From the NCBI GenBank assembly GCA_000990005.1, contig LBPF01000001.1:26315-90314 (forward strand): 64,000 nt of DNA, written 5' to 3'. The notes under the pieces were generated by a model, which saw nothing but the letters and a program-made list of their open reading frames with translations, did no database searches and was not told where the DNA came from. Position 1 is the first letter of the stretch. Every line of letters starts with the position of its first letter. Below, one piece after another: positions 15,398 through 16,184 of this stretch. The DNA is from Candidatus Woesebacteria bacterium GW2011_GWB1_33_38 (GTDB taxonomy: Bacteria; Patescibacteriota; Microgenomatia; UBA8517). Both the position numbers and the translations under genes were made by a program.

Positions 15398-15405
15398 TTA
15401 CTTGA

Positions 15406-15429
15406 CTTCTTCTTCTTCTTCTTCTTCTT
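15406..15429. repeat. (CTT)8 trinucleotide microsatellite in the promoter/5' region of the gene at 15444
   Basis: Eight perfect CTT units start inside a TTGACT box and end at a TATAAAAT box. Confidence 0.9.
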
Positions 15430-15443
15430 ATAAAATACGTTTT

Positions 15444-16184
15444 ATGGCAGTAGATAATGAATTAAATGAACTACAGAAACAAGCAATTGCGAAAGTAACT
15501 GAAAGTATTTCTGAAGACGGGATGGTTGTACTTGATACAGGTAACAATTGGTTCTTGCGTGTTGATCCCTTACATCCTGAGAAATCTGAGTGGTATACGA
15601 CTGTAGTACAAGGTGATCCTAATGCGGCAAAAAAGATTCATAGTGCCTATATGCATCAAGGACCACCTTACAAACAGCTTGTTTTTGTAGAAAATGATTT
15701 AGATTCTGAAACCAAAACAGTTGGTGGTATTCAACCTCTGATTTGTGTGGATGCAGAAGGTAAATCTTTTGTCGCTGTTCAGTATAAACAACGACACAAT
15801 GGGGTTGTTGCAGAGGCTTTTAGAAAAGCTTGGAGTAGGCCTGAAGAGCAAACACAAATTCTGGCCGAAGGAGGCGAAGTAACAAATTATAAAGATATTG
15901 ATTTAGGAAGAGGTCTGGCAAATGATGCTAGGTTGGTGGGTCCAGATGATAAATTGGCACAAATAGTATATGAATTGACAGTTGTAAAAGGTGGAACAAG
16001 ACTTCCGGAAATTGATAAAGGTAATTGGATGCCTGTTGAAGAATTCCTAATGACAACACGAGAACATATGGGTAAAGGGGTAGTTGCTATTGCAGGGCTG
16101 AGAAGTCTTTTCCCCGTGAGTATAGAAAATATGAACGAGCAAGCAGTAAGACTTCCAGCTTTAATTAAAGAGTGGTCAGAGTAA
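15444..16184 (+). CDS. Hypothetical soluble protein (246 aa) with visibly higher G+C and different codon usage than its neighbours
   Basis: The ORF track extends upstream to 15213 only by reading through the CTT tract as poly-Ser while overlapping rfbB. The ATG at 15444 follows the rfbB stop and the promoter-like boxes. I recognise no family. Confidence 0.5.
   Translation: MAVDNELNELQKQAIAKVTESISEDGMVVLDTGNNWFLRVDPLHPEKSEWYTTVVQGDPNAAKKIHSAYMHQGPPYKQLVFVENDLDSETKTVGGIQPLICVDAEGKSFVAVQYKQRHNGVVAEAFRKAWSRPEEQTQILAEGGEVTNYKDIDLGRGLANDARLVGPDDKLAQIVYELTVVKGGTRLPEIDKGNWMPVEEFLMTTREHMGKGVVAIAGLRSLFPVSIENMNEQAVRLPALIKEWSE

Follow-up and report, generated by a model that had tools for sequence, protein, structure and literature searches.

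What is a microsatellite doing between the two boxes of a promoter in a groundwater bacterium? The question is raised by a stretch of 64,000 nucleotides (nt) from Candidatus Woesebacteria bacterium GW2011_GWB1_33_38 (contig LBPF01000001.1, positions 26,315 to 90,314), referred to here as the window, in which eight uninterrupted CTT units precede a gene for a 246-residue protein in a deoxythymidine diphosphate (dTDP)-rhamnose cluster. Phase variation by slippage of simple sequence repeats (SSRs) is, to our knowledge, described almost entirely from host-adapted pathogens and mycoplasmas. Bacteria of the Candidate Phyla Radiation (CPR), to which this organism belongs, are believed to spend their lives attached to other cells, with heavy exposure to phage, and we know of no account of how they vary their surfaces. 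An earlier reading of the letters of this DNA, made without database searches (the sequence-only reading), had proposed that the repeat is a phase-variation switch. On the comparative evidence set out below, there is an even chance that the promoter with the CTT spacer is a contingency or phase-variation switch of this kind. The features on which the question turns are the following, with position 1 as the first letter of the window.

15402–15407, forward strand: putative -35 hexamer, TTGACT, matching TTGACA at five of six positions
15406–15429, forward strand: perfect (CTT)8 microsatellite, which would form the promoter spacer (Tandem Repeats Finder, TRF)
15431–15436, forward strand: preferred -10 hexamer, TAAAAT, 7 nt before the ATG and aligned with the -10 boxes of orthologues
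15429–15434, forward strand: alternative -10 hexamer, TATAAA, overlapping TAAAAT
15444–16184, forward strand: the gene that would be controlled, encoding 246 residues with a predicted Nudix-like fold, from a very rare family

The repeat itself is beyond doubt. TTGACT, the eight CTT units and the ATG at 15444 stand in the sequence exactly where the sequence-only reading had put them. From the end of the upstream gene onwards the order is CTG TAG, ttac, TTGACT, TCTTCTTCTTCTTCTTCTTCTT, ATAAAAT, acgtttt and ATG GCA; the -35 hexamer begins 4 nt past the stop codon and overlaps the start of the CTT tract. TRF reports a period of 3 nt, 8.0 copies and 100% matches. In our own census of SSRs the tract is the sole trinucleotide run of more than 4.3 units within 64 kb, and in simulations with Markov models of orders 1, 3 and 5 (300 windows) no perfect trinucleotide run exceeded 5 units. 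The tract is therefore confirmed as a real feature, an uninterrupted SSR longer than chance is expected to produce.

The meaning of the repeat depends on which hexamer serves as the -10 box. TAAAAT is preferred over the overlapping TATAAA because it keeps the final T, because it lies 7 nt from the ATG, as in other leaderless promoters of this genome, and because it is aligned with the -10 boxes of the orthologous loci. The spacer is then 23 nt long, as against 21 nt to TATAAA. The spacer of about 21 nt given by the sequence-only reading is thus correct for TATAAA but not for the better box, and its estimate that losing one CTT unit would yield about 18 nt rests on the same weaker hexamer; with TAAAAT it is the loss of two units that leads to 17 nt. 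A standard scan for promoters with spacers of 16–18 nt returned none on the forward strand here, as expected for a spacer of 23 nt.

The distance from the -10 box to the start codon is equally informative. No Shine–Dalgarno sequence precedes the ATG at 15444, where the geometry is TAAAAT-ACGTTTT-ATG, and no TGn extended -10 motif is present at the promoter (15402–15443). Across the window 14 of the 29 promoter-proximal genes have a -10-like hexamer 6–7 nt ahead of the start codon, other distances accounting for about two genes each, and six of those 14 have a canonical TGn extension. Leaderless promoters with the -10 box 6–7 nt before the ATG are the common promoter architecture in this genome, and leaderless starts predominate among its promoter-proximal genes. 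Since TAAAAT lies 7 nt before the ATG and the genome-wide peak is at 6–7 nt, transcription is predicted to start at or adjoining A15444 and to give a leaderless mRNA. The same geometry, with a -10 box 6–7 nt before the start, is found in the orthologues.

The leaderless architecture is also seen at three divergent gene pairs of the window, whose members are only 21–33 nt apart (17692–17724, 23065–23086 and 25563–25583). Each gene in these pairs has its own -10 box 6–7 nt before the ATG, with a canonical TGn in three of the six, and the promoters overlap back to back. At 23065–23086 the boxes TATCAT (forward strand) and TACAAT (reverse strand) even have bases in common.

Evidence that the hexamers at 15402–15436 are more than a chance resemblance comes from related loci. 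Upstream regions were compared among the contigs that carry members of the protein family, of which L004/L020, L001–L003 and L018 represent three orthologous lineages.

Window (reference): TTGACT-23 nt-TAAAAT-7 nt-ATG, with (CTT)8 as spacer
L004/L020, protein identity to the window 78% for L004 and 70% for L020 (the latter by best local alignment, the L020 protein carrying a deletion): TTGACT-17 nt-TATAAT-6 nt-ATG
L001–L003, protein identity 78%, with a different upstream gene: TTGACT-17 nt-TAAAAT-6 nt-ATG
L018, protein identity 62%: TTGACT-17 nt-TACAAT-7 nt-ATG, with (CTT)6 as spacer

TTGACT is invariant across the three lineages despite diverged flanks and spacers. Synonymous sites among these orthologues are saturated (the proportion of synonymous differences, pS, is 0.71–0.79), with a ratio of non-synonymous to synonymous divergence (dN/dS) of at most 0.07, and the retention of both hexamers and of the 17-nt spacing therefore points to selection. 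The pattern TTGACT-17-TAnnnT-6/7-ATG, kept in three lineages at this degree of divergence, supports the view of the sequence-only reading that the hexamers form a promoter, and marks it as a genuine, conserved one for a leaderless mRNA. By the same comparison the repeat would lie between functional -35 and -10 boxes of the gene that it would regulate, and the earlier description of it as filling the spacer and making it over-long also stands.

The orthologues show, in addition, how the spacer has evolved. In alignment, the window has a 6-nt spacer insertion, equal to two CTT units, relative to all three of them. An uninterrupted (CTT)6 itself forms the 17-nt spacer in L018, and L004 has a degenerate CT-rich version, TTTACTTCTCTTTTTTT. 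Given (CTT)6 in L018 and (CTT)8 in the window, the length of the tract has changed over evolutionary time. Between lineages, steps in unit number move the predicted promoter into and out of what would be its optimal geometry, six units corresponding to 17 nt and eight to 23 nt. Distant family members (53% and 24–28% identity) have Shine–Dalgarno-led starts, no repeat and no such promoter, so the promoter is specific to the clade with at least 62% identity. A further search for orthologues by protein alignment returned one already known locus from metagenome contigs and none from genome contigs.

The mechanism that these observations suggest is as follows. The segment 15402–15443 would be a promoter of the sigma-70 type, with the CTT microsatellite as its spacer, from which the gene for the 246-residue Nudix-fold protein is transcribed as a leaderless mRNA. 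The tolerance of sigma-70 for variation in spacer length is the basis for supposing that a spacer of 23 nt (or 21 nt) cripples a promoter. At 23 nt, or at 21 nt to TATAAA, sigma would be unable to contact both boxes, and with an over-long spacer, no TGn and, instead of TGn, a conserved near-consensus -35 box, the 8-unit allele would be expected to be low or OFF. Slipped-strand loss of two units (from 8 to 6) would restore an ON geometry of 17 nt, and a 7-unit allele, whose spacer would measure 20 nt with TAAAAT and 18 nt with TATAAA, would represent an intermediate state. The locus would then behave as a contingency promoter, whether phase-variable or of the volume-control type, in a dTDP-rhamnose cluster, and switching would probably affect the supply of nucleotide sugar for a surface glycan. 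The surface-glycan context is counted in favour of a switch because such genes are the classic cargo of contingency loci. The structural features of promoters with an SSR in the spacer are all present here, and none is contradicted; the locus is regarded as a good, well-supported candidate for a contingency promoter.

Several observations weigh against a switch. The tract has eight units in the window and in all six of the contigs inspected, which come from six assemblies of the same population (ERZ28564412, ERZ909594, JGI 3300025121, JGI 3300025117, ERZ27254749 and ERZ28563735), and there are no single-nucleotide polymorphisms (SNPs) among the six where they were compared, over lengths reaching 1141 nt or more. 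The sequence-only reading had itself named the lack of length polymorphism across reads or strains as grounds for abandoning the switch, and at the consensus level none is seen; the six contigs are consensus sequences of a clonal population, from which minority alleles cannot be excluded, and about 20 more contigs of this strain exist beyond those inspected. A gapped pattern for other alleles, covering 2–12 units, gave no matches in public metagenome and genome contig collections. As the same pattern does match the retrieved contigs locally, these collections seem not to hold the strain, and the null result of the scan is uninformative. Furthermore, eight units of a 3-nt repeat make a modest tract. 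Canonical -35 boxes are rare in the window, where several leaderless promoters rely on TGn and the -10 box, and the -10 box alone might sustain expression at eight units. Finally, no terminator-like site was found in 15398–15443, between the upstream RmlB fusion gene and the ATG at 15444, and read-through from the upstream rml genes could express the gene at any spacer length. What stands of the phase-variation proposal is thus the conserved promoter, the repeat in its spacer and the (CTT)6 orthologue at 17 nt, and what does not is any polymorphism among the contigs and the window.

The main rival explanation draws on the same observations. It holds that the locus is a fixed and quiet expansion, in which a CT-rich spacer grown by slippage is now stable and expression of the gene relies solely on the -10 box or on transcripts that run on from rmlA and rmlB. 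The eight units without SNPs in every contig and the missing terminator are as this explanation would have them, as are the poor -35 boxes of several leaderless promoters of this genome and the normal purifying selection on the gene. It accounts less readily for the perfect retention of TTGACT though the hexamer is displaced by 6 nt, or for a -10 box that would have to work without the TGn carried by several other leaderless promoters here. Moreover, the distant orthologue L018 keeps an uninterrupted CTT repeat at exactly the 17-nt length, which suggests that the repeat itself is maintained and is not accidental, and SSR length polymorphism is known in this population from the (ACAAATC) site described below. 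A fixed expansion is accordingly regarded as possible but somewhat doubtful. The gene is intact, with dN/dS in the range of purifying selection given above, and the window branch is not accelerated (0.064, compared with 0.078 and 0.082, from three-taxon arithmetic on dN), all of which argues against a dead promoter in front of a decaying gene.

Breaks in the assemblies occur close to the repeat. Two contigs of ERZ909594 are involved, of which the first stops at 15505 and the second starts at 15588; the NCBI partial protein KKP56679.1 begins at the same codon as the 15588 contig, and another partial protein begins near 15651. These breaks all fall in the 5' part of the gene at 15444–16184, too far from the CTT tract for the tract to have caused them, and there may be a local variant segment in the ERZ909594 sample behind them. 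The breaks at 15505 and 15588 were ruled out as a sign of CTT heterogeneity, as they lie 76–160 nt beyond the tract and are at odds with the k-mer geometry of a repeat-length bubble.

A separate explanation arises from the composition of the sequence that leads into the repeat.

15345–15422, forward strand: C-rich, G-poor pyrimidine tract resembling a Rho utilisation (rut) site, with 32 C and 5 G in 78 nt

This tract covers the end of the upstream gene (its final 17 codons, 15344–15394) and extends into the CTT repeat. Among those 17 codons of the gene at 13505–15397, 14 end in C, compared with 10% elsewhere in the gene (binomial tail 5e-12), and no other 85 nt of the window are as rich in pyrimidines as these codons and the repeat together; 15345–15422 is the second strongest window for C over G on the forward strand. 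The RNA of the tract is unstructured, with a minimum free energy of -7.1 kcal/mol (z = +1.3 relative to shuffles). In composition it corresponds to a rut site, that is, some 70–80 nt of C-rich, G-poor and unstructured RNA. A known RNA element at the locus was ruled out, as Rfam gave no match at the gathering threshold anywhere in the window.

On this basis a role at the level of RNA can be envisaged, in which a C-rich tract of 78–85 nt (15345–15430, including (CUU)8) acts on a read-through transcript, either as a rut site, which would keep the gene insulated from the rml operon, or as a pyrimidine-rich, S1-binding leader that aids translation without a Shine–Dalgarno sequence. The repeat would then be selected for its composition and not for spacer length. 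Although the codon bias, the skew of C over G, an RNA less structured than its shuffles and the encoding of Rho by a relative of this organism (L001) all fit such a role, the C bias is missing from L004 and from the flanks in L018 and L001, whereas the promoter boxes are kept in all of them. The C-ending codon bias could equally be a small recombination patch. We therefore think an RNA-level role improbable as the explanation of the repeat. It is, however, compatible with the switch model and does not exclude it: if the tract does resemble a rut site in function as in composition, it could halt transcription that arrives from the rml genes and so tighten the OFF state.

The frame of the repeat permits one further interpretation. 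The -35 box opens with a TTG (15402), and translation from this codon on a read-through mRNA would give the protein an N-terminal extension, MTSSSSSSSYKIRF, with a poly-serine stretch whose length varies with the number of units. The TTG is in frame with the ATG at 15444 (42 nt), the open reading frame 15213–16184 is open through the repeat, and the equivalent TTG of L018 is likewise in frame (36 nt; L018 52–90), where it would encode MTSSSSSFTIVF. Yet in L004/L020 and L001–L003 the TTG lies 35 nt from the ATG, out of frame, and the boxes are still conserved. Alignment of the family proteins starts at the annotated Met, there is no Shine–Dalgarno sequence, and the -10 box at 6–7 nt matches the genome-wide leaderless pattern. 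As in-frame positions at two loci are expected by chance in about 1/9 of cases, those of the window and L018 are probably coincidental, and a coding repeat is very improbable.

The product of the gene offers some indication of what a switch would control. The 246-residue protein is identical to those of Candidatus Woesebacteria bacterium GW2011_GWA2_33_28 and sister bins, which are groundwater Microgenomates of the CPR. Its family is extremely small, with 6–10 homologues (clusters) in 5.8 billion proteins and 12 representatives in 1.84 billion. No Pfam family matched any of 16 family members at an expectation value (E) of 1 or less, and no sequence match was found in the PDB. A first structure model, built from 6 sequences, reached a mean predicted local distance difference test score (pLDDT) of 68 and was too poor for use. 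An AlphaFold2 (AF2) model from the 16 family members reached a pLDDT of 87 and a predicted template modelling score (pTM) of 0.77. With this model, all 50 of the 50 best Foldseek matches in the PDB were Nudix proteins, led by ADP-ribose pyrophosphatases of the NUDT5 type; the best match had an E of 6e-5 and a probability of 1.0, with template modelling scores (TM-scores) of only 0.3–0.4. The canonical Nudix box (GX5EX7REUXEEXGU) is absent from the family alignment, and the PF00293 profile gave no match. The protein is thus predicted to have a Nudix-like fold, although the sequence signature of Nudix enzymes is lacking.

The sequence-only reading had also described the gene as having atypical, higher-GC codon usage and as standing at the edge of an accessory island. 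The guanine-plus-cytosine (GC) content is indeed higher (39.1%, z = 2.4), but codon usage is typical, with a third-position GC (GC3) of 23.9% (z = 0.6). Since GC3 is ordinary, the extra GC derives from the amino-acid composition and not from foreign codon usage. Nor does the position at the edge of an island hint at foreign origin, for the gene belongs to the syntenic core of the rml cluster and the island starts only after it. A foreign origin of 15444–16184 is therefore ruled out by the typical GC3 together with the synteny in L004. Likewise, an origin of the gene by duplication was considered, with the C-terminal half of the protein encoded upstream as its source, and was rejected, as BLASTP found no similarity. 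The neighbouring features are these.

12615–13508, upstream: RmlA-like nucleotidyltransferase (Pfam)
13505–15397, forward strand: RmlB-like dTDP-glucose 4,6-dehydratase fused to a degenerate Nudix-like C-terminal domain, 630 residues (Pfam; weak homology)
16185–18400: low-GC insert (25–30% GC) with a HepT/MNT toxin–antitoxin pair and DUF3800
16896–17691, reverse strand: toxin–antitoxin pair of a HepT-like RNase and an MNT nucleotidyltransferase
17725–18300: DUF3800 gene
20950–21546, further downstream: RmlC
21543–22436, further downstream: RmlD

With the RmlA-like protein, the RmlB fusion, RmlC, RmlD and many glycosyltransferases, the surroundings are those of surface-glycan biosynthesis. In L004 the gene for the 246-residue protein stands between the RmlB fusion and an MFS gene, and by this synteny it is core to the cluster and not part of the island; the insert itself is missing from this syntenic relative, which has a cytidylyltransferase-like gene at that position. 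A distant family member lies directly upstream of rmlA, rmlB and rmlC genes. Most likely, the protein takes part in the metabolism of nucleotide sugars (dTDP-sugars) that are used for a surface glycan.

The gene also has a recurrent partner. It always adjoins a degenerate NUDIX-domain protein (window 14450–15397; L001 4807–5562; L018 1044–1772), which is fused to RmlB and upstream in the window and L004, and free-standing and downstream in L001 and L018. The C-terminal half of the RmlB fusion has weak homology to the NUDIX proteins of L018 and L001 (E 7e-5 and 4e-4), and the partners have a common C-terminal motif, D-Y-LSAL--LNL. The gene and its NUDIX partner appear to form a conserved gene pair.

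Is repeat-mediated variation otherwise found in this organism? A perfect (ACAAATC)4 repeat lies at 43905–43934, 28 kb from the CTT tract, within a GT2-like glycosyltransferase gene (43663–44385, forward strand). When the loci L022, L023 and L024 were compared, contig L023 (ERZ27254745, 206 kb) was found to have only two ACAAATC units and to be identical to L022 across the other 5,905 nt compared. The loss of 14 nt in L023 causes a frameshift that truncates the glycosyltransferase after about 90 residues. With four units against two, this SSR is truly polymorphic in copy number, and its slippage toggles a glycan gene in this population; this lends indirect support to switching at the CTT site.

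Elsewhere in the window, in a genome of 32% GC, an intergenic G9 homopolymer (5605–5613) lies 28 nt upstream of the ATG at 5641. The gene that begins there encodes a protein of 411 residues whose N-terminus is hydrophobic and which matches no Pfam family, and TTGACA, a (TA)5 run and TATAAT are found upstream of the homopolymer, around 5448–5480. It is possible that the G9 tract is a further contingency tract or an element of a 5' untranslated region.

It may tentatively be suggested that this Woesebacteria population runs a small contingency set on its surface-glycan genes, made up of the CTT spacer (ON at about six units, possibly with a rut-like insulator), the heptanucleotide frameshift switch and possibly the G9 tract; as a whole this is unlikely enough to be offered only as a working idea. 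The predicted ON allele of the CTT promoter, with six units, exists in an orthologue, and the predicted OFF allele, with eight, dominates one aquifer population. In a literature search no account of an SSR promoter switch in CPR bacteria came up, nor any paper naming Woesebacteria together with simple sequence repeats. If such a set is real, it would be the first case of SSR phase variation in the CPR known to us and would imply that a host cell or phage exerts strong, fluctuating selection on the surface of this ultra-small symbiont from groundwater. If the population holds no heterogeneity, the locus would be an expanded microsatellite that has weakened an internal promoter, which is ordinary.

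Comparison with known systems bears first on the protein. Nudix hydrolases of nucleoside diphosphate sugars occur in polysaccharide clusters, as exemplified by the GDP-mannose mannosyl hydrolase WcaH/NudD of E. coli. The protein of the window resembles WcaH/NudD-type and NUDT5-type enzymes in its predicted Nudix-like fold and N-terminal beta domain, and its gene lies inside an rml cluster. It differs from the WcaH/NudD type in lacking a Nudix box and any Pfam or PDB sequence match, in its low TM-scores, and in belonging to a family of about a dozen representatives.

As regards the promoter, the nearest parallels have the repeat in the spacer itself. Such repeats are found at hifA/hifB of Haemophilus influenzae, as (TA)n, and at porA and opc of Neisseria meningitidis, as homopolymers. 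Transcription is also switched by repeats between the -35 and -10 boxes in Mycoplasma hyorhinis vlp, where the repeat is poly-A, in M. arthritidis maa2 and in M. mycoides vmm (summarised in PMC2268961). In all of these, as would be the case here, a repeat between the hexamers sets spacer length and hence promoter strength, and the cargo is surface-related. The locus in the window differs in its trinucleotide unit, which changes the spacer in steps of 3 nt so that only one or two unit numbers would be usable, in its predicted leaderless mRNA, and in its host, an uncultivated groundwater CPR bacterium and not a host-adapted pathogen. Switching is a property of those systems, whereas here it is a candidate property deduced from sequence comparison.

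The repeat class, on the other hand, is that of vlhA (pMGA) in Mycoplasma gallisepticum, as GAA/AAG is the complement of CTT/TTC. There a (GAA)n tract lies in the promoter region and expression is tied to exactly 12 GAA units (PMC6258824; Liu et al., 2000, as cited in PMC2268961). At vlhA the repeat is not part of the -35/-10 spacer: it is located some 40 nt ahead of the transcription start, with conserved vlhA-specific sequences on its flanks (PMC6258824). In the window, by contrast, the repeat lies inside the spacer, between a stop codon with TTGACT on one side and the -10 box on the other, and precedes a single gene, whereas vlhA is a large family of lipoprotein genes.

A third group acts as rheostats from upstream of the -35 box, namely the T-tract of Helicobacter pylori sabA (PMC4081817, PMC2715451) and the TAAA repeats of N. 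meningitidis nadA (PMC2791445). The likeness is that the length of an SSR tunes transcription through the geometry of promoter elements, as is proposed for the CTT tract. The difference lies in which elements are moved: the sabA and nadA tracts act by phasing distal elements or regulators, whereas the tract in the window separates the core hexamers themselves.

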